IMG/VR virus record: IMGVR_UViG_3300012928_000001
Span: 41,164-105,163 of that record
Length of the DNA: 64,000 bases
Direction: 5' to 3' (one strand)
DNA from: a virus
Part shown: one piece after another, positions 2,593-57,739 of the stretch
Layout: each line of letters begins with the position of its first letter
Numbering within the stretch: the stretch's first letter is position 1
Program-made: the position numbers and the translations under genes
Notes under the pieces: model-generated
Told to the model about the DNA's origin: nothing
The model's input: only the letters and a program-made list of their open reading frames with translations
The model's database searches: none

Positions 2593-2843
2593 TCGAGCAG
2601 CTCCGCCGTCGGCTCGACTATACCGACCGCCTACTGGTCCGGCTGCTCTCGCAGCGGTCGGGTCTCGTGGCCAAGGTCCAGCGCGCCCGCGCAGCCGGGG
2701 GCGGGCCCTCGCGGGACCCTGAGCGTGAGGAGGTCGTGCGAGCCCGCGCCGAGCAGCTCGCCCGCGAGCTCGGGGGCTACCCGCCCGATGTTGTGCTCAC
2801 GATCTTCGAGATTCTGTTCGCCAACGCGGAGCGGGCCCAATGA
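2589..2843 (+). CDS. Chorismate mutase, AroQ/type II
   Basis: LRRRLDYTDRLLVRLLSQR...RAR...RDPEREEVV...Q pattern matches AroQ catalytic residues; GTGA overlap with upstream stop and ATGA overlap with downstream start. Confidence 0.85.
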   Translation: MIEQLRRRLDYTDRLLVRLLSQRSGLVAKVQRARAAGGGPSRDPEREEVVRARAEQLARELGGYPPDVVLTIFEILFANAERAQ

Positions 2844-3928
2844 AGCCGCCGTACTACGTGCCGACCATGGCTGTGGTCGAGGCCGCGCGGGGGACCAATG
2901 GCTACACCGCGGTCTCGACGTTCTCGGGCGCGGGCGGCAGCTGTCTCGGGCACACCCTCGCCGGCTTCGCTGTGCTGTGGGCGAATGAGTTCATTCCCGC
3001 TGCGCAAGATACCTACATGCGGAATCATCCTACCTCGCATCTCGATACCCGAGACGTGCGAGAGGTGCAGGGCGCCGACATCCTGAACGCGGTCGGAAAA
3101 GACATCGGGGAGATCGATCTTTTCGATGGCAGCCCGCCGTGCTCCGCGTTCTCGAATGCGGGGAGTCGGGGCCAGCAGTGGGGAAAGATCAAAGGCTACA
3201 GCGACACCAAACAGCGGGTTGATGATCTGCTCTTCGAGTTCGCGCGTCTCGTCGCGTTCACGCGCCCGCGGGTGTTCGTCGCTGAGAACGTTGGGGGGTT
3301 GCTCCGCGGTAAGGGGTTGGGACGGTTTCGGGAGCTCGTCAAGCGTCTGCCGGGGTACACGATCCGCGCTCAGACCATGGACGCGGTTTGGATGGGCGTC
3401 CCCCAACGCCGCGAGCGGGCGATCATCATCGGTGTTCGCAGTGATCTAGGAGTGCCGCCAGCATTCCCGAAGCCGCTGAAATACTACTACACGGCCGGAG
3501 ACGCGCTCCCGTGGCTACGCGCTCCCGCGGGCACCCGCGTTGCGCGTCTGGGCGAGATCACCGATCGCGTCCCTCTAGCCAAGAGCCGGCGCGAGGGCAA
3601 AAAGTACAACACCTACGAAGTGCTCCCACATAGGCCCTGTCCCACCGTCACCGTGGCGAGCGATGGCAATGACCTGTTTATCATCGGTCCGACTGAGCAG
3701 GAAGCCAATGCTGGCATCATCGCGCCCGCGGACCCGCGGAAGATCAATATCTCCGAGCTCCGCCGCCTGTGTGGCTTTCCTCCAGACTTCCAGCCTACTG
3801 GGTCGTTCTCGAAGCAATATGAGCGACTCGGCCGCGCTGTTCCGCCACCCATGATGTGCGCCGTAGCCTCGACGATCCGCGATGCTGTGCTACGAAAAGC
3901 AGACCATGGGCAGCAACAGCAGCATTGA
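2840..3928 (+). CDS. C5-cytosine DNA methyltransferase family; predicted DNA carboxymethyltransferase
   Basis: Motif I FSGAGG, IV GSPPCSAFS, VI ENV, VIII QRRER, IX ELRRLCGFP, X variant ERLGRAVPP (Asn to Arg). Confidence 0.92.
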   Translation: MKPPYYVPTMAVVEAARGTNGYTAVSTFSGAGGSCLGHTLAGFAVLWANEFIPAAQDTYMRNHPTSHLDTRDVREVQGADILNAVGKDIGEIDLFDGSPPCSAFSNAGSRGQQWGKIKGYSDTKQRVDDLLFEFARLVAFTRPRVFVAENVGGLLRGKGLGRFRELVKRLPGYTIRAQTMDAVWMGVPQRRERAIIIGVRSDLGVPPAFPKPLKYYYTAGDALPWLRAPAGTRVARLGEITDRVPLAKSRREGKKYNTYEVLPHRPCPTVTVASDGNDLFIIGPTEQEANAGIIAPADPRKINISELRRLCGFPPDFQPTGSFSKQYERLGRAVPPPMMCAVASTIRDAVLRKADHGQQQQH

Positions 3929-4619
3929 TCACACCCCCGAGGACCGCTGGGTCTTTGACGAGTCCGTCGCGGATTGCTTCGAGGACATGTTGTCCCGATC
4001 CATCCCACAACACGACGAGATGCGCCGACTCGTCGGCAACGTCGGCGGGGTCGGGGTGGCCGACGGGACCCTTGTCGTTGACTTGGGATGTAGCCTCGGT
4101 CAGGCGATTGTCGACGTGCGCCGAGTAGCTCTCTCGCGTGGCATCAATGCGGTGTATCATGGGCTGGAGACGAGCGCTCCGATGCTTGATCGTGCCAAAG
4201 CGCGATTCGACTCTGTCGATGTCTTTGTAACGAACGAAGATGTGCGGACATGGAACGGCGACAACTGTAGCGTGGTGCTGGCAGTGCTTACGCTACAGTT
4301 CATCCCGATCAACTACCGACAGCAAATCATCCGCAACGTATTCGAGTCCCTGAACCCCGGTGGGCGCTTCGTGCTCGTCGAGAAAGTGCTGGGCGAAGGG
4401 GCGCAGGTCGATGATCTCATGGTCGCGCACTATCACCACAACAAACTCCAACAGGGCTATTCGAGGCAAGCTGTACGAGCGAAAGCGGAGTCCCTCGAAG
4501 GTGTGTTGGTCCCGGTGACTGCTGGCATGAACGAATCGATGCTTCGCCGTGCGGGCTTCCGTGAGGTAGACTGCTTTTGGCGATGGATGAATTTCGCGGC
4601 ATGGGTGGCGATCAAGTAG
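3906..4619 (+). CDS. cmoA: CmoA-like carboxy-S-adenosyl-L-methionine synthase
   Basis: WVFDESVADCFEDMLSRSIP, DLGCSLG, TLQFI, LNPGGRFVLVEK, GYS...K..LEGV, AGF...NF follow CmoA along its whole length. Confidence 0.85.
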   Translation: MGSNSSIDHTPEDRWVFDESVADCFEDMLSRSIPQHDEMRRLVGNVGGVGVADGTLVVDLGCSLGQAIVDVRRVALSRGINAVYHGLETSAPMLDRAKARFDSVDVFVTNEDVRTWNGDNCSVVLAVLTLQFIPINYRQQIIRNVFESLNPGGRFVLVEKVLGEGAQVDDLMVAHYHHNKLQQGYSRQAVRAKAESLEGVLVPVTAGMNESMLRRAGFREVDCFWRWMNFAAWVAIK

Positions 4620-4813
4620 CCTGCGAACACCCGAGCCCCACAGAGCTCGTGCCCGGCGTGAAGTTGTGTCGGGGCTGTGGGGCTCTCCATGTGAACGGTC
4701 GATGGGGGCGCGTCCCGTTGCCCCCAAAGCCGTGCTGTGAGGAGTGCGAGCAGAACCGTCGACGGCTCGCCGATACTTGGTACAGAGAGCGTAAGTGTGC
4801 AGGTTGCAAATGA
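4601..4813 (+). CDS. Small Cys-rich hypothetical protein
   Basis: Three CxxC-type motifs; start uncertain. Confidence 0.35.
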   Translation: MGGDQVACEHPSPTELVPGVKLCRGCGALHVNGRWGRVPLPPKPCCEECEQNRRRLADTWYRERKCAGCK

Positions 4814-5132
4814 GATCCGGCGCGCGTTTCTCCGCGCCCAAATGCGCGTTGATCTGGAGCGCAACCTAGACGCGCTAGCAGATGCGCATGGGGTGAGCGT
4901 CGAGTACGTCGCGGGTATGATCAAACACGTGATCGAGACCTGCGCGGGGGACCACGTTGACATGCTCTTCGCCGTAGACAGTCGGCTCCAGCGGGGCGTG
5001 CATGTCGAGCCCGTCGCGCCCCTGACCGAGACCGTCAACAAAGTACAGGCGGCGCTGTCGTCAGGCCTGAAAGACGTGGTATCGTCTGGCCCGAATGCGC
5101 TACAGCGTGAAAGTCTTCGCCGTCCGGTGTGA
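4797..5132 (+). CDS. Hypothetical protein
   Basis: ORF in operon context; start uncertain (GTG 4797). Confidence 0.45.
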   Translation: MQVANEIRRAFLRAQMRVDLERNLDALADAHGVSVEYVAGMIKHVIETCAGDHVDMLFAVDSRLQRGVHVEPVAPLTETVNKVQAALSSGLKDVVSSGPNALQRESLRRPV

Positions 5133-5331
5133 CGAGAAGGGCCGGCGCCTGCCCACCCCCGAGGGCAAAAAGCCCTACGTCGCCCAGGACCGGGTTCACG
5201 TCGAGGCCCAGGGACACGATGCCGCCAAGGCAGCTGCGCGCGCCGAGCTGTCCAAGGGCCGTGGCCGGGTCATCTCGATCAACTTCGAAAGCGATACCGC
5301 GCTCGTGGCGTACGTGGAGAGCAGCAAATGA
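5095..5331 (+). CDS. Hypothetical protein
   Basis: High GC3 codon usage; ATGA overlap with next gene. Confidence 0.55.
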   Translation: MRYSVKVFAVRCDEKGRRLPTPEGKKPYVAQDRVHVEAQGHDAAKAAARAELSKGRGRVISINFESDTALVAYVESSK

Positions 5332-5693
5332 GTCGCCGTGCAATCATTGGTAACGAGGCCGATCTAACGCGGCATCTCCCGACCGACCCCAACGACCCCG
5401 ACACGCTCGTCACGGGCAATTCGGAGACCTACGATGTGTCGCGGTTTCAGATGCAGACGGCGGCGGTACACTTCGGTTTTGACGCGGGCTCTTCTGGCGA
5501 CTACACGCTACAGGGAGCCGTTGGTAGTTCGAGTCCTTGGGTGGATATTCAATCGAACATCACAAGCGATACGCTGATCAACTTCTCGGAGCCGCCGAAT
5601 AATCATTACTGGGCTCGGTTGCGTGTTGTTGTGAATACTGTAGGCGCCGAAGATGATACAATCACCCTCGGCGCGCACGAGTACGTTTGGTAG
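5328..5693 (+). CDS. Hypothetical beta-sandwich-like protein (possibly virion)
   Basis: Coupled start; beta-rich pattern ending in ARLRVVV. Confidence 0.6.
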   Translation: MSRRAIIGNEADLTRHLPTDPNDPDTLVTGNSETYDVSRFQMQTAAVHFGFDAGSSGDYTLQGAVGSSSPWVDIQSNITSDTLINFSEPPNNHYWARLRVVVNTVGAEDDTITLGAHEYVW

Positions 5694-5713
5694 TCGCAAA
5701 AAGGAAATAAAAG

Positions 5714-6628
5714 ATGCCCGGCCGCAATCCAGTTTTTCCTGCCCCGCGAGATATTCGTCGTCAAACGTACTATCCCGGCGTTTCGCTATCGCTTGCCGAG
5801 ATGGTCGCGCTCGGCCATATCGCGGGCGCAAAAATTGTGCACTTTACCGGACGCCGAGAAGATGTAGACGGTGAGGCCGAAGCATGGTCGGCACTCCTAC
5901 CGACTACGCGTGCCCCATACCGGCCCGATATTTCTGGCGGACCTATTGGGTGGACTCCCGAGCCTTTGACGGCGCAGAGTACTTCGTCAGATGACGGGGG
6001 CGCCGGATCGGGTGCGCAGGTACTACTAGTTGAATACCTGAACGCGGATGGGTTTGAACGCATTGGTCTCGCACTGCTCGCGGGAACGGGGACAGTACCG
6101 GTTCTCGAAGCAACGTCACAAGGTGTTGGTAATGCAAACACCATTGTCCCGTTGATGCCTCCAACGCCTGCTACGGGAGTACGCGTAAACCGCGTAACAG
6201 TAGTTGCCGGTGGTGTGCCAGCAGGGAACTGCACCGTCGAACTTGGTGGTCAAGCTGCACAGCGGCTGCTTCCGGGTCAAGCGCTGTCATCGACAAGTCG
6301 CTTTACTGTGCCACGTGGATTTATTGGGTTGATTCACGGTCTCGGCTATGGTGTTGATCGTGAACAGCGGGGGCTCGTGCGTGTTTATGCACAGCCGCTC
6401 GGGCGGCTGGACTATGAGTTCACCGCCTACGAGGCCAGTAACGGTGCCCTTGCGGTACCGCTTGCAGAGCCAATTCGGCTAGCACCGCTGGGTGAGTTGG
6501 GACTAACTTTTGAAAAGGACTCGGGTGGTGGAAACATCGATGTATCCAGCATTCTGCAACCGATCTTCCTCCCGGATCCCAACGACCCTGATCCAGCGCC
6601 AGAACGACAAGCGCCGCCGTTGGGCTGA
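5714..6628 (+). CDS. Hypothetical protein (possibly virion)
   Basis: 304 aa ORF with AAGGA SD upstream; unusually AT-rich third codon positions. Confidence 0.65.
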   Translation: MPGRNPVFPAPRDIRRQTYYPGVSLSLAEMVALGHIAGAKIVHFTGRREDVDGEAEAWSALLPTTRAPYRPDISGGPIGWTPEPLTAQSTSSDDGGAGSGAQVLLVEYLNADGFERIGLALLAGTGTVPVLEATSQGVGNANTIVPLMPPTPATGVRVNRVTVVAGGVPAGNCTVELGGQAAQRLLPGQALSSTSRFTVPRGFIGLIHGLGYGVDREQRGLVRVYAQPLGRLDYEFTAYEASNGALAVPLAEPIRLAPLGELGLTFEKDSGGGNIDVSSILQPIFLPDPNDPDPAPERQAPPLG

Positions 6629-50429: not shown

Positions 50430-51659
50430 GTGAAAACATACCACACCCTGAGCCCCCGCGGCCAGCAACTACCCGCAAAAATCCGCACCCTGATTAGGGT
50501 GCTTTTGGCGCAAGGGTACGATCACGAGCTCGCCCTAAACATAGAGTATCTCGCTACAGCCCTAAAGGTGCACCGTGCTACCGCTTATCGCCAGCTGCAT
50601 AAGGCCGAGCGATTGGGGGTAATCGAGATCGATAAGGGGTCCAGTCCTTTGGGTGGGGTCCGTCCCCACCCAAAGGTGATGTTGCCGTCCCGTCACAATT
50701 GGTCTATTCGCGTGAATCCGTGGTGCTACGAGCCTGTAGCGAAAAATCAGACTGGGGCAAATTCCAAAATGCGACAGCTTAATTATAATTCTCTTAATTC
50801 TACTCAAGAGAAAGAAGGAGATAAGGGAAAAGAGGAAAAAGAAAAAGATAAATGCGGTCGCATTTTTGCGGCTCCATGGCCACTCTCTACCCCACTACCG
50901 GCTAAGCAAGGTGCCGATATCGTAGATCCCGAATACACCCCTTCGGCATACGAGGAAGAGGAGTTCGAGTCTCGATTCGATGCACTCCTCTCCGGCTCGG
51001 CCCCAGGACAGCGAAAGCTTGCTGAGGCATCATGGGCCGGGCTCGGTATGCTCCCTGACTTCCCAGACCGGGGGTTCTGTCGATTCGCCAACACCCCCGC
51101 GCTTCCGCAGTTCACCGGCAACATGAAATGGGACATCTCTATCATACTCTGCGCCTATCGCTGCATCATCAAAAAGATGTACGGCAAGCGCGTTCGGCTT
51201 GACAACAAAGTGCGCTTTCGAATGAAGCCTGTTGTGCTGGCGCTAATCCAGCATGGCGTGAAAAGCCCATACCCTTGGGGAATGCAGCGCACACAGCAAT
51301 ACCGATTCGCTCACGGACCGGACAAAAAGCCTTCGATCGACGCGATCTTCTCCGGGCCGGCGGTCGCGGCTCAGGTTGCGAATTTCGAGGCTTACGCGGT
51401 ATCCTACGGCCTTTCACGGCAAATCATGGCCCCCTCACACCGCGAGGCCGTCACTCGGTGGTATCAAGCAAAAGCAATTGCGCTGTGTCTCGCACCGCCG
51501 AACGGCCTACAGAGGGAGACCGCCATCGCGGCGCTCGTCGGTCCGGCTGAGCTCGCGCGGTTGCGGCGGCAAGCTGAGGCTGAGGTTGTGCGGATTGAGG
51601 CCGATCTACTTCGTCGCATGCAAGCCAACGATTGGATCTGGGGGGACGTGAGTGTCTGA
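50430..51659 (+). CDS. Putative replication initiator (N-terminal wHTH)
   Basis: IEYLATALKVHRATAYRQLHKAERLGVI HTH; low-complexity linker; directly upstream of DnaB-like and primase. Confidence 0.55.
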   Translation: MKTYHTLSPRGQQLPAKIRTLIRVLLAQGYDHELALNIEYLATALKVHRATAYRQLHKAERLGVIEIDKGSSPLGGVRPHPKVMLPSRHNWSIRVNPWCYEPVAKNQTGANSKMRQLNYNSLNSTQEKEGDKGKEEKEKDKCGRIFAAPWPLSTPLPAKQGADIVDPEYTPSAYEEEEFESRFDALLSGSAPGQRKLAEASWAGLGMLPDFPDRGFCRFANTPALPQFTGNMKWDISIILCAYRCIIKKMYGKRVRLDNKVRFRMKPVVLALIQHGVKSPYPWGMQRTQQYRFAHGPDKKPSIDAIFSGPAVAAQVANFEAYAVSYGLSRQIMAPSHREAVTRWYQAKAIALCLAPPNGLQRETAIAALVGPAELARLRRQAEAEVVRIEADLLRRMQANDWIWGDVSV

Positions 51660-53013: not shown

Positions 53014-53906
53014 ACCGCGACGAGATGGTGATTGAGGCCGTGCAGCACGGTCGTCGGAACGCGTCCGGGTGGGTGCGGGTCACGTGCCCGTTTTGCCCGA
53101 CGCGTCGCAACTCGCCGGACCGCAAGCAATCATTCGCGTTCAACCCTTCGACGTCGGGCTTTGTCTGCAACCGCTGCCGGATCAAGGGGCGCCTGTTCTC
53201 CGCGTACACCGGGACGTTTAACGGTCCGCAACGCGAGGCGCTTTCCATCCATGCTGAGGCGGCCGGGTTCGCCTCGCTCTCTGACCTGTCCGTGATTCGT
53301 TCGCAGTCCGCCAAGCCGGCTTACACCTATCTCGCATCGCGTGGCTTCACGATGTCAGACATCGAGGCCGCGGATATGCGCGTCGCACTGTACGGCAAAT
53401 ACTCTGGCCGAATCATCATTCCCCACCGCGAGGCCGATGGGTCATGGTGGGGTTTCTCTGCGCGGATCTGGAAGCGCAAGATTGACCCGGGTTGCCGCAA
53501 AGTCCTCTACCCACCCGGCATGGATCGTCAGCGTCTCTACAACGCGCCCGCGTTGCTCGAAGAGACAGATCGTATGTTGCTTGTGGTAGAGGGTGTGCTA
53601 GATGCAACATGGTACCTGCCCGATGTCGTGGCCTCCCTAGGCCTCCCGATCATGTCGCATTTCGAGCGCTTGGTACGATTCGCCAAACGCCCTGTCTGCT
53701 TTGCCCTCGACGGCGACGCATGGGAGACCGGCCGCGCATGGATGCAGCTTGGTCGGTTCCGCGGGCGCAAAGACTTCTACGCCGTCCGGCTCCCCCCGGG
53801 CGAAGATCCAAACAGCATCGATCCTCAATGGCTATTCGATCAAGTCGAAGGCCTCACCACAATCAACGCAATCAAGCGAACCCCGAAAGCAGCGCTTCTC
53901 CCATGA
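53010..53906 (+). CDS. DNA primase (Zn finger + TOPRIM)
   Basis: CPFC...CNRC, YLASRG, RIIIP, VVEGVLDA, LDGDA, EDPN. Confidence 0.9.
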   Translation: MNRDEMVIEAVQHGRRNASGWVRVTCPFCPTRRNSPDRKQSFAFNPSTSGFVCNRCRIKGRLFSAYTGTFNGPQREALSIHAEAAGFASLSDLSVIRSQSAKPAYTYLASRGFTMSDIEAADMRVALYGKYSGRIIIPHREADGSWWGFSARIWKRKIDPGCRKVLYPPGMDRQRLYNAPALLEETDRMLLVVEGVLDATWYLPDVVASLGLPIMSHFERLVRFAKRPVCFALDGDAWETGRAWMQLGRFRGRKDFYAVRLPPGEDPNSIDPQWLFDQVEGLTTINAIKRTPKAALLP

Positions 53907-55039
53907 TCACCGATCTGCAAGCTCTTCTCACCACCATCGGTCCTGACAAATACAAGACCCTCGACATCAACGAACTCGTGCGCATGCAAGTCGAGCTGGC
54001 GCGCATCGACCTCGAAGGCGCCAAGCTCCAGCGCCTGAACGATCAAGACCTCGACGCGCAGCACCGGTCGGTCGCGTCTCCCGCTCCCGCTCCCGCTCCC
54101 GCGCCGACCCCCGCTCCCGAGCCTGTCGAGACTTTCGTGGCCGCGGCCGAGCCTGCGCCGGCCCCCGCCGCGCCCAAGATCACCATCGTGCCCGCTCCCG
54201 AGCTCGTCGACCGACCGCCGACCCCCGAGCCCGCGCCGCCGACCCCCGAGCCCGCTCCCGAGCCCGCGCCGCCGACCCCCGAGCCCGCGCCGGTGGTGCA
54301 CGCGACCATGCCGGAGCCTGCGCCCGCACCCGCTCCCGAGCCCGCGCCGACCCCTGCACCCCCGGCGCCCTCGCCTGTCCCCGCTCCGGCGATCCAGGCC
54401 CGCGCCGCCGCCCTGCCCAAGCCCCTGACCCCGCCCGAGCCCGCGCCGACCCCTGCGCCTGCTGAGGCCCCCGAGCACGCCGTCGAGACGCTCAAGTGCG
54501 GTCACGAATGGTACGTCAACATGCCCGCCCGCGAGCACCCCACGGCGCTCTCTGGGGTCGCGCACCAAAAGGCGATCCAGTTGACCGAGTGGGGCGGCCG
54601 AAAAGTCGTGAATCGGACCGAGAATGAGCTCTACTATCGACTCGATCTCGACAACGGCGATTTCGTGCGCATCGAATTCGACGGGCACGACTGGTATGAG
54701 GCCGGTCGTGCGAACAACGACGGCGACATGCTGCCGATCTTCAAACACCCCAAGGGCGCGAGCGAACCGGTCGCGTCGCTCCGGGGCGAGACGGCCGCAC
54801 GCGTCGCTATCAACGTGATCATGAGCGAGGGCGCCGGGGTCACGAGCTGGCGCCGACGGACGGGCATCCCCCAGGCTCCCAGCTTCCCCGAGGCCGTGCG
54901 CTTCGCCGAGCTCGATGCGAAGATGCGACACTACACGGGCGAGCCCTTCCTGCCCAAGTACACCGGCGATGACATGTTCATCATGGAGCTGTCGGCCTAC
55001 CTCAATCGGCAAAACACCGAGCTTCTCATCGAGGACTGA
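53903..55039 (+). CDS. Hypothetical protein with long Pro/Ala/Glu-rich linker
   Basis: ATGA overlap with primase; PEPAPPT repeats. Confidence 0.7.
   Translation: MITDLQALLTTIGPDKYKTLDINELVRMQVELARIDLEGAKLQRLNDQDLDAQHRSVASPAPAPAPAPTPAPEPVETFVAAAEPAPAPAAPKITIVPAPELVDRPPTPEPAPPTPEPAPEPAPPTPEPAPVVHATMPEPAPAPAPEPAPTPAPPAPSPVPAPAIQARAAALPKPLTPPEPAPTPAPAEAPEHAVETLKCGHEWYVNMPAREHPTALSGVAHQKAIQLTEWGGRKVVNRTENELYYRLDLDNGDFVRIEFDGHDWYEAGRANNDGDMLPIFKHPKGASEPVASLRGETAARVAINVIMSEGAGVTSWRRRTGIPQAPSFPEAVRFAELDAKMRHYTGEPFLPKYTGDDMFIMELSAYLNRQNTELLIED
54079..54470 (+). repeat. Pro-rich imperfect tandem repeats
   Basis: Repeated CCGACCCCCGAGCCCGCGCCG and GCTCCC units. Confidence 0.85.
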
Positions 55040-55042
55040 TCC

Positions 55043-57739
55043 ATGCGTCGCTTGCCGCTGTACACCACACGGGCGCAACCCATCGACCGGATTGCTGGCC
55101 TCGATCGAAACCCGAAGTGTACAGCGTGCGACCGACATAAGTCCTCTCGCCTTGTCTGTATTCAAGCGCAAGCCGTGCCGCGCGGGCCCGTCCAGGGCGG
55201 CGCCCTGATCGTCGGTGATTGGCCAACGGTCGGGGAGGAAGGGGCCGGGGTCGTGTTCTCCTCGGAGGTGAACTCGCAACTGCGCGCGTTCATTGAGTAC
55301 AACTATCAGGGCACCGTGGTCTACGCGTCCGCGGTGGGCTGCTCGGCTCGCGGCGAAGCGCCATCCGACAAGGAGATTGCCGCTTGTCGGCCCTACCTCA
55401 AAGCGATCATCGACGAAGCGAAACCTGAGCGCATCATCTGTCTTGGCAAGGTCGCTTATCGCTCGGTGCTCGGGACGAAAACGCCGGCGAAAGACAGCCG
55501 ACGCGGATACAATCACCTCGAAGACGGTACACCCGTTTTCATGTTTCCGACTGCGCGCTCGCAGTATGTAAACGTGTTTCATCGGCGGTGCTTTCTTGGC
55601 GACATGGTGTGGGCACTGCAAGCAAGCCCCGAACCTGCGCCGTTCGATATGCAGGTCGAGATCATCGAGACCGCCGACGACGCAAAGCTGGCATGCGACG
55701 AGCTGCGCAAGGGTGGGCGGTTCTCATACGACACGGAGACCTCGGGCCTGATCGGCTCGGATTTCTTCCGCGTGCTGTGTCTCGCCGCCGCTACGGCGGA
55801 CGCCGGTCGGGTGTTTCTGTGGGATTGGCAAGCGCTCCTCTCAGTCCGCGAGGATCTGGTCGAGCTCATGCGCGACGACACGGTCAAGAAGACCGGCCAC
55901 AACCTCAAGTACGATCTCAAAGCGGCGGCGCATGGCATCGCCGGGTTGATCGATGACTTTGGGCGGTTGCTCGTCAAAGGCGTCGACACCGACACGCTGC
56001 TACTGACGAAAATGCTCGACTCCGAAGTGCTCTGTCGCCTGGAGTATCAGGCCGAGCGCGTCGGGATGGGCGGGCACAAGGAAGAGAACAAAGCCGCGCT
56101 TGACATGGCCGTCGCGTCCATCCGAGCGGCGCGAGCGAAGCCTCGGCAACGCATCTTCCCCGGACTGTTCGAACCCGCAATGGAGGCCGCGCTGCGGCAC
56201 CCGCTCGTCGATGAAAAGTCGTTCGCGTTCGGGCTCATCCCGCCCACGATCTTGCACCGTTACTGTGCGCTCGACACCGTAGCCACTGCGCGGCTTCGGA
56301 ATCTCATGCACCCGGACATCGAGCGCGCAGACCATCACCGGCTCGTGAACTCGACATTCGTCCGGCCGTCGACGGGGGCGCTCGCACAGATCGAGAGCTG
56401 GGGCATGAGCGCGAGTCCAGACGCGGCACGGCTCGCGGGGCTACACCTTCGCACCGAGCGGGACAAGGCGATGACCAAGATTCGCGCGCTCGGATGCGAC
56501 ATCAACATCGCGTCGCCCGCCCAGCTGTCAGAGTACTTGTTTGGTCGGCTCGGGTTGCCGGTCTACGGGCGCACGCCGACCGGCGGCGCCTCGACCAAGG
56601 CGGAGTTTTTGAAGCCGCTCGCGGAAAAGCACCCCGTCGTCGAGCCGCTGCTACTGCACTCGAAGCTCGACAAGCTGATCGGCACATACGCCGACGGCTT
56701 GATCCCACACATTCGCAACGGACGGATCTACACCAACATCAATCAGGACGGCACGCGTTCTGGCCGATGGTCTTCGAGCTCGCCCAACTTGCAGAACATC
56801 CCGTCGGGCGGACCTTGGGCTAAGTACATCAAATCGATTTTCACCGCGCCGCCTGGACACCTGCTAATCCAGCTCGACTATTCGCAGCTAGAGCTTCGAG
56901 TCGCCGCCATGCTCACCGGCGATCCGAAGATGATCCAGATCTACAAAGACGGGCAAGATTTCCACCGCCGAACCGCGGAGCTCATCGCCCCGGCGATGTG
57001 GAAAATCGACGCGAGCCAGGTGACCAAGGATCACCGTCGCTCGGCAAAGGCCTTCAACTTCGGCGTTTGGTACGGGCAGGGAGACGGCACCATCGCCAAG
57101 AATCTTGCTGTGTCGCGCAAGATCGCGGCGCAGCTTCGCCACGAAGTTCTCGGACAGTTCACCGAGGCGGGACCGTGGATCGACGGGCGGAAAACCTACG
57201 CGCAGATGCACGGAATCACGTGGACCTATTGGGATGGTCAGCACGCCCGCGTTCGGCAGCTCCCCGACATCGTCTCTTACGATGACAAGCTCAAGTCGAC
57301 CGCCATGAACGGCAGTTTCAATACCGCAGTTCAGGGCACCGCCGCGCTGTTCATGGAGCGCACAATCGGCGAGGTCGTTCGTTGGATCTTGTCTTCTGGT
57401 CTGCCCGTCCGCGTCACCAACACAGTCCACGATTCCATCATCCTCGAAGTGCCGTTCCGTCTCGTGAATCTTGTGATTGACGTGGTGACGGACATCATGG
57501 AGAGTTGGCCTAGCGGCCCCGTGCCGCTCGTCGCTGACGCGGAGATTGGATCCACCTGGGCCAGCTTGCGTGACTACGCGTTGATCAAGAAAGTCGCCAA
57601 CTTCACCGCTCGGAACATGTTCACCGACGAGGAGATCTGCAAGGTGCTCGGCATCCTCACCGACCCCCCGACCAAGGCCCCGGATTTGGTCGAGCTCGGC
57701 GAGCTCCGGCGCCTCGCAAAACTCGTCGGCCGGCTGTGA
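55043..57739 (+). CDS. Family A DNA polymerase with N-terminal UDG family-4-like domain and 3'-5' exonuclease
   Basis: DTETSG, GHNLKYD, YCALD; TRSGRWSSSSPNLQNIP, DYSQLELR, RSAKAFNFGVWYG, VHDS. Confidence 0.95.
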   Translation: MRRLPLYTTRAQPIDRIAGLDRNPKCTACDRHKSSRLVCIQAQAVPRGPVQGGALIVGDWPTVGEEGAGVVFSSEVNSQLRAFIEYNYQGTVVYASAVGCSARGEAPSDKEIAACRPYLKAIIDEAKPERIICLGKVAYRSVLGTKTPAKDSRRGYNHLEDGTPVFMFPTARSQYVNVFHRRCFLGDMVWALQASPEPAPFDMQVEIIETADDAKLACDELRKGGRFSYDTETSGLIGSDFFRVLCLAAATADAGRVFLWDWQALLSVREDLVELMRDDTVKKTGHNLKYDLKAAAHGIAGLIDDFGRLLVKGVDTDTLLLTKMLDSEVLCRLEYQAERVGMGGHKEENKAALDMAVASIRAARAKPRQRIFPGLFEPAMEAALRHPLVDEKSFAFGLIPPTILHRYCALDTVATARLRNLMHPDIERADHHRLVNSTFVRPSTGALAQIESWGMSASPDAARLAGLHLRTERDKAMTKIRALGCDINIASPAQLSEYLFGRLGLPVYGRTPTGGASTKAEFLKPLAEKHPVVEPLLLHSKLDKLIGTYADGLIPHIRNGRIYTNINQDGTRSGRWSSSSPNLQNIPSGGPWAKYIKSIFTAPPGHLLIQLDYSQLELRVAAMLTGDPKMIQIYKDGQDFHRRTAELIAPAMWKIDASQVTKDHRRSAKAFNFGVWYGQGDGTIAKNLAVSRKIAAQLRHEVLGQFTEAGPWIDGRKTYAQMHGITWTYWDGQHARVRQLPDIVSYDDKLKSTAMNGSFNTAVQGTAALFMERTIGEVVRWILSSGLPVRVTNTVHDSIILEVPFRLVNLVIDVVTDIMESWPSGPVPLVADAEIGSTWASLRDYALIKKVANFTARNMFTDEEICKVLGILTDPPTKAPDLVELGELRRLAKLVGRL

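Follow-up and report, generated by a model that had tools for sequence, protein, structure and literature searches.

The analysed window is a stretch of 64,000 nucleotides, bases 41164–105163 of a 105,163-bp IMG/VR virus record. The record is a phage genome from a marine metagenome; it has direct terminal repeats of 123 bp, is rated 100% complete by CheckV and has a G+C content of 64%. A look-up in sequencing runs listed two DNA runs that contain it, both of them marine metagenomes and possibly its source sample, and no RNA run. Four genes on the + strand overlap one another in the order ParB, chorismate mutase, CmoX and CmoA. The first (2026–2592) encodes a ParB_N/ParBc-like protein of 188 residues (PF02195, E 8.7e-07; phrog_620, E 3e-36) and the second (2589–2843) a stand-alone AroQ (type II) chorismate mutase of 84 residues from the GTG at 2589, or 94 residues if translation starts at the GTG at 2559. 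The third (2840–3928) encodes a 362-residue protein, the candidate DNA cytosine C5-carboxymethyltransferase of CmoX type, and the fourth (3906–4619) a homologue of the carboxy-SAM (Cx-SAM) synthase CmoA, of 237 residues from ATG 3906 or 245 residues from ATG 3882. The start codon of the mutase overlaps the ParB stop codon (GTGA), the mutase stop codon overlaps the CmoX start (ATGA), and cmoA overlaps the 3′ end of the CmoX gene by 23 nt (ATG 3906) or 47 nt (ATG 3882). Downstream of this cassette lie three small open reading frames (ORFs) without a family and a portal gene, and the rest of the window carries head, tail and replication genes. The ORFs that flank the cassette at 1342–1999 and 4737–6628 gave no Pfam or PHROG match and have no counterpart next to cmoA in 230 related loci, and were therefore left out of the system. 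Further upstream, at 52–1311, a collagen-repeat protein resembling tail fibres is encoded (PF01391 and several tail-fibre PHROGs), and an 898-residue ORF at 55043–57739 corresponds to a family A DNA polymerase with an N-terminal domain of the UDG superfamily and a 3′–5′ exonuclease domain. A nucleotide search against isolated phages returned only a 400-nt match of 67%, to Streptomyces phage TurkishDelight; among isolates, the phage has only distant relatives.

The protein encoded by ORF 2840–3928 is covered end to end by PF00145 (E 2.3e-45) and is the only cytosine C5-methyltransferase (C5-MTase) homologue of the 105-kb genome. Its best PDB match, by sequence as well as by fold, is entry 8YF3 (Yang et al., Nat Commun 2025, PMC12783734). 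This entry is SpCmoX, a DNA cytosine C5-carboxymethyltransferase encoded by Synechococcus phage S-B43. The match has an E-value of 4.2e-51 with phmmer and of 1.5e-90 over positions 17–369 with a profile of 30 sequences, the window protein and 29 relatives (alignment A2). An AF2 model of the window protein (pLDDT 79.9, pTM 0.83) superimposes on 8YF3 with a Foldseek E-value of 1.4e-27 and TM scores of 0.72/0.78; the target-recognition domain (residues ~213–300) is modelled poorly, with pLDDT values below 50 at 230–256 and 272–291. The two proteins share only 34% identity. The best metagenomic relatives reach about 50–59% identity to the window protein, which has a long branch in a tree of 124 relatives, ~1.7 substitutions per site away from the nearest of them.

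The catalytic PC, ENV and RxR motifs, which the initial annotation had described as intact, are all present. The SPPC motif (S98-P99-P100-C101, 3131–3142) carries the presumed catalytic Cys101, equivalent to C98 of SpCmoX, and is kept in 83 of 83 aligned relatives; the ENV motif, or motif VI (E149–V151, 3284–3292), is invariant in alignment A2; and both QRRER (residues 189–193) and FSGAGG (residues 28–33) are intact. Also invariant in A2 are E149, R191 and R193, the ENV Glu and motif VIII Arg residues that contact the cytosine in CmoX. Motif X, QYERLGRAVPPP, lies at 3815–3850, and its residue 332, encoded by the CGC codon at 3833–3835, is an Arg at the position where C5-MTases normally have an Asn. 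This Asn-to-Arg swap was the central claim of the initial annotation, and it was borne out with exact codon coordinates. The motif string it quoted, QYERLGRAVPP, is also correct; the range 3818–3850 given for it is one codon off, a trivial slip, as these bases encode YERLGRAVPPP and the string occupies 3815–3847. The proposed equivalence with the motif X Asn holds in both alignments used. A phmmer search against PDB sequences placed GRAV on GNAV of M.HaeIII and on GRMV of 8YF3_A, and the A2 profile put Arg332 in one column with R350 of 8YF3 and with the Asn of HaeIII, of the prophage MTase 3G7U and of M.HhaI (FGNSV). As this column holds Arg in all 30 A2 sequences and in 139 of the 197 distinct family members sampled, a chance change at Arg332 was set aside.

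In SpCmoX, R350 replaces N304 of HhaI and directly contacts the carboxymethyl group of Cx-SAM (PMC12783734). All the Cx-SAM contacts named for SpCmoX are kept in the window protein: F25, E47, F48, D69 and C98 correspond, with a constant offset of +3, to F28, E50, F51, D72 and C101, and R350 corresponds to R332. The published enzyme forms 5-carboxymethylcytosine (5cxmC) on DNA in vitro, and does so in E. coli only with cmoA present; the wild type uses Cx-SAM alone and refuses SAM, the R350N variant accepts neither cofactor, and the CmoA of S-B43 is a fast Cx-SAM synthase (PMC12783734). The same work gathered 5,615 candidate CmoX proteins (SPPC plus R350) from IMG/VR, UniProt and MGnify, whose contigs hold 4,257 CmoA, 2,251 ligase and 1,660 ParBc genes; the ParBc association is noted there with no function given (PMC12783734). 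We put the probability that the window protein is a Cx-SAM-dependent DNA cytosine C5-carboxymethyltransferase of the CmoX family at roughly 0.85. SpCmoX targets GC (PMC12783734); for the window protein a target sequence, like the activity itself, is a matter of inference. The initial annotation had proposed that Arg332 is a natural counterpart of the engineered M.MpeI N374K switch and binds the Cx-SAM carboxylate. By analogy with R350 of its homologue SpCmoX, for which this was shown by experiment, the proposal is supported. The idea of a natural Arg-based cofactor switch is correct but already appeared in print in December 2025, together with a crystal structure, and the parallel between R350 and M.MpeI N374K was drawn by the authors of that paper themselves (PMC12783734). 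Our search of the literature turned up no further account of a natural CmoX. A reverse R332N change would be unlikely to restore the use of SAM, because SpCmoX R350N is inactive with both cofactors.

The motif X residue and the neighbouring genes were scored at 150 viral loci and 80 loci from bacterial genomes. These yielded 197 distinct MTases: 139 carry Arg in motif X (Arg-type), 52 carry Asn (Asn-type), and the residue was unreadable in the remaining 6. The initial annotation had proposed a test for enrichment of GRAV/GKAV enzymes beside cmoA, and the survey shows such an enrichment: cmoA lies within the flank of 134 of the 139 Arg-type genes and of none of the 52 Asn-type genes. Of the five Arg-type loci that lack it, some are on short or truncated contigs. 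An AsnB-like ligase (51/139) and a chorismate mutase (24/139) are likewise found within the flank of Arg-type genes and of no Asn-type gene (0/52 for each). A ParB gene, just upstream of the MTase, accompanies both types (122/139 Arg-type and 48/52 Asn-type).

The frequency of the ligase bears on the identity of the final base. In S-B43, the AsnB-like ligase CmoY adds glycine to the carboxymethyl base, and the virion DNA contained the glycyl amide with no free 5cxmC (PMC12783734). By extension, the window enzyme could use Cx-SAM and yet make 5cxmC only as an intermediate, which a phage ORF without a family or a host enzyme would convert into an amide or another derivative. There is room in the genome for such an enzyme: when 20 large ORFs away from the structural module were compared with Pfam and PHROG, replication genes and a terminase were identified, and at least ten ORFs of 260–760 residues were left without a family (in bases 1–41163 of the genome, L151–L153, and in the window at 50430–51659 and 53492–55039), any of which could hide a hypermodifying enzyme. 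Against this, the complete genome contains no match to Asn_synthase, ATP-grasp_4, AMP-binding or Gln-synt_C (PF00733, PF13535, PF00501 and PF00120) and no homologue of SpCmoY or of gp124 of TurkishDelight, the ORFs flanking the cassette have no conserved place beside cmoA, and 85 of the 134 cmoA-bearing Arg-type clusters also do without a ligase within the flank. PF14395 had no match in the phage genome, but as it had none in any control genome either, this result carries no information. We regard an intermediate role for 5cxmC as unlikely; the end product here is probably 5cxmC itself and not a glycyl or amide derivative, a prediction that follows from the lack of a recognisable ligase in a complete genome.

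A second alternative is that the protein is an ordinary SAM-dependent 5mC methyltransferase in which the Arg is neutral, the neighbouring CmoA serving host tRNA modification or SAM depletion. The canonical C5-MTase motifs, all intact, would suit such an enzyme, and so would the existence of Asn-type sisters (GNSV or GNAV; viral loci L046, L047 and L083–L150, and bacterial loci L185, L187, L190, L191, L214, L224 and L233), which are 45–60% identical and have the same upstream ParB, without cmoA, ligase or mutase. SAM depletion by a phage CmoA is moreover raised as an open question in the published work (PMC12783734). Nevertheless, the wild-type homologue SpCmoX does not accept SAM, no CmoB-type tRNA enzyme is encoded in the cassette, and every cmoA-linked enzyme has the Arg, which is absent from the cmoA-less ones apart from five Arg-type loci with no cmoA in the flank. 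We consider an ordinary methyltransferase very improbable. The weight of the Arg/cmoA association is limited by phylogeny, as the motif X residue switches state only about twice on a FastTree tree. The counts, close to a single evolutionary split, are thus not independent, and a naive Fisher p-value of ~1e-41 was rejected as independent evidence. The association is consistent with the use of Cx-SAM and is no statistical proof of it.

A third motif X state also exists among the relatives, a conserved clade with Asp (QWERLGDAVPP; representatives P0042, P0046, P0094, P0118, P0128, P0135, P0137 and P0144). Seven of these eight representatives have Glu-Pro directly after the catalytic Cys (SPPCEPF). 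Two viral loci, L237 and L238, carry Asp at the same position, and the enzyme of L238 reads SPPCQAF. In L237 (1019–4428), the one viral locus of this type that we examined, a ParB gene lies upstream of the enzyme, no cmoA is found beside it, and a gene for a 510-residue protein without a family starts at the stop codon of the enzyme; an Atlas search with this protein gave no usable match. It is possible that the Asp-type clade uses a different donor or cofactor. In single representatives, the motif X residue is Gln, Leu, Glu, Met or Cys.

The predicted Cx-SAM synthase of the window aligns over its full length with E. coli CmoA (PDB 4GEK; E 1.8e-34, residues 22–245). On TIGR00740 (NCBIfam) it scores 163.8 bits (E 5e-48), below the equivalog cut-off of 193.3; the cut-off is not decisive because the experimentally active CmoA of S-B43, SpCmoA, falls below it too, with 115.6 bits (E. 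coli CmoA scores 455). In an alignment of 79 CmoAs, all the invariant columns are present in the window protein: D62, G64, G68, F137, R143, K165, K185, K198 and L202 in E. coli numbering. It differs by a His in the column of E. coli Tyr39, which is Tyr in 91% of the 79 sequences, and by an Ala at R199. The Ala was considered as a disqualifying change and rejected as such, as this column is not conserved (Arg in only 43% of the 79 CmoAs) and the validated SpCmoA has a Glu there. The window CmoA is, from its score and its conserved residues, a credible Cx-SAM synthase. That this homologue instead makes another SAM derivative, whose acidic group is bound by Arg332 and which ends up as a different C5 adduct, is hardly credible: the substitutions at Tyr39 and R199 and the score below the equivalog cut-off would speak for it, but the protein outscores the validated SpCmoA, keeps every invariant column, varies at a residue, R199, that is not conserved among phage CmoAs, and lies in a cassette with a chorismate mutase, which points to prephenate, the co-substrate for Cx-SAM.

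The mutase itself matches PF01817 (CM_2) with an E-value of 6.8e-14 and 52.3 bits, compared with a gathering cut-off of 27, and its best PDB match is the chorismate mutase of Thermus thermophilus (2D8D, E 1e-7); all the NCBIfam equivalog models for chorismate mutases score it below their cut-offs. With an offset of +5 to 1ECM that we derived from the match ranges, the equivalents of Arg11, Arg28, Asp48, Arg51 and Glu52 of the E. coli enzyme EcCM are kept. The position of EcCM Lys39 is taken by an Arg, aligned with position 46 of the intracellular chorismate mutase of M. tuberculosis in the 5MPV alignment; we take this position to be Arg46, catalytic in that enzyme. Across the related loci, CM_2 genes above the Pfam gathering score occur at three positions of the cluster: between ParB and CmoX (L040, L065, L070 and many Verrucomicrobiota loci), between CmoX and CmoA (L061) and after CmoA (L080). 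Their products are only 28–42% identical to the window mutase. A mutase and an AsnB-type ligase never occur together in the 139 Arg-type clusters, a pattern much of which is clade structure. One Verrucomicrobiota metagenome-assembled genome (MAG) has cassettes of ParB, mutase, CmoX and CmoA at L165, L167, L169, L199, L202 and L225, and another has cassettes of the same type at L207, L209, L227, L228 and L230. Such multiplicity, with five or six copies per MAG spread over different contigs, suggests several related prophages or a mobile element.

The phage mutase most likely supplies CmoA with prephenate made from host chorismate. The availability of prephenate is named as an open question in the CmoX paper, which mentions neither chorismate nor chorismate mutase (PMC12783734), and our literature search found no link between chorismate mutase, phage and CmoA. 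The enzyme would be a previously undescribed accessory of CmoX systems, a modest new feature, and the recurrence of a phage-encoded mutase bears directly on the origin of the prephenate.

The modification would proceed as follows. AroQ mutase would most likely raise the supply of prephenate from host chorismate, and CmoA would make Cx-SAM from SAM and prephenate. In the transferase, Cys101 would attack C6 of a flipped-out cytosine, aided by Glu149 of the ENV motif and by the motif VIII arginines, according to standard C5-MTase chemistry. The donor would be carboxy-SAM and not SAM, because Arg332 in motif X, in place of the usual Asn, would pair with the carboxylate of the donor. Phage DNA would thereby acquire 5-carboxymethylcytosine, which would presumably shield it from host restriction. 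Taken as a whole, a ligase-free and self-supplying pathway, in which four overlapping genes lead from host chorismate and SAM through prephenate and Cx-SAM to unamidated 5cxmC as the final base of the virion, is a reading to which we give even chances.

Since the cofactor of a DNA methyltransferase homologue can be predicted from a single residue of motif X, a "DNA methylase" with G-R-(A/S)-V encoded beside cmoA should be annotated as a carboxymethyltransferase. Going slightly beyond the published work, the complete genome of this phage, which encodes CmoX and CmoA but no recognisable ligase, is a candidate source of natural DNA with 5cxmC as the final base, and the close Asn-type sisters offer natural comparisons for the switch in cofactor specificity.

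Among the known systems, the E. coli CmoA/CmoB pathway for tRNA cmo5U shares with the window a full-length CmoA homologue and the use of basic transferase residues, Lys91 and Arg315 in CmoB, to read the Cx-SAM carboxylate; it differs in its acceptor enzyme and substrate, the window having a homologue of DNA C5-MTases in place of CmoB and, as predicted, a DNA cytosine in place of the tRNA ho5U. M.HhaI and M.HaeIII have the same fold and catalytic motifs as the window CmoX (profile E-values of 2e-30 and 7e-43), whereas their motif X residue is Asn (N304 in HhaI), their donor SAM and their product 5mC. The M.MpeI N374K variant (Wang and Kohli 2021, as cited in PMC12783734) is reported there to use Cx-SAM and to form 5cxmC owing to a basic residue in motif X. 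This residue is at the same position as Arg332, but it is a Lys, engineered into a CpG-specific SAM enzyme that has no dedicated supply of Cx-SAM.

The closest protein in isolated phages is gp123 of Streptomyces phage TurkishDelight, annotated as a "methyltransferase", which is 43% identical over 97% of the length and also reads GRAV. ParB genes lie upstream of it and a CmoA homologue downstream (region of gp123, gp124 and gp125). In TurkishDelight a glutamine-amidotransferase/AsnB-type ligase is encoded between CmoX and CmoA and a mutase is lacking, whereas the window phage shows the reverse. The gene order of S-B43, a 214-kb cyanomyovirus, is CmoA, CmoY, CmoX, without the leading ParB and mutase pair of the window and with a ligase that was not found in the window phage; the target-recognition domains of the two CmoX proteins, moreover, align poorly. 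Both enzymes nonetheless come from phages, have an adjacent cmoA and share the C5-MTase fold, the SPPC, ENV and motif VIII residues, the motif X Arg and the named Cx-SAM contacts. The window CmoX is thus a new and divergent member of the known CmoX family, and adds neither a new kind of system nor a new principle.
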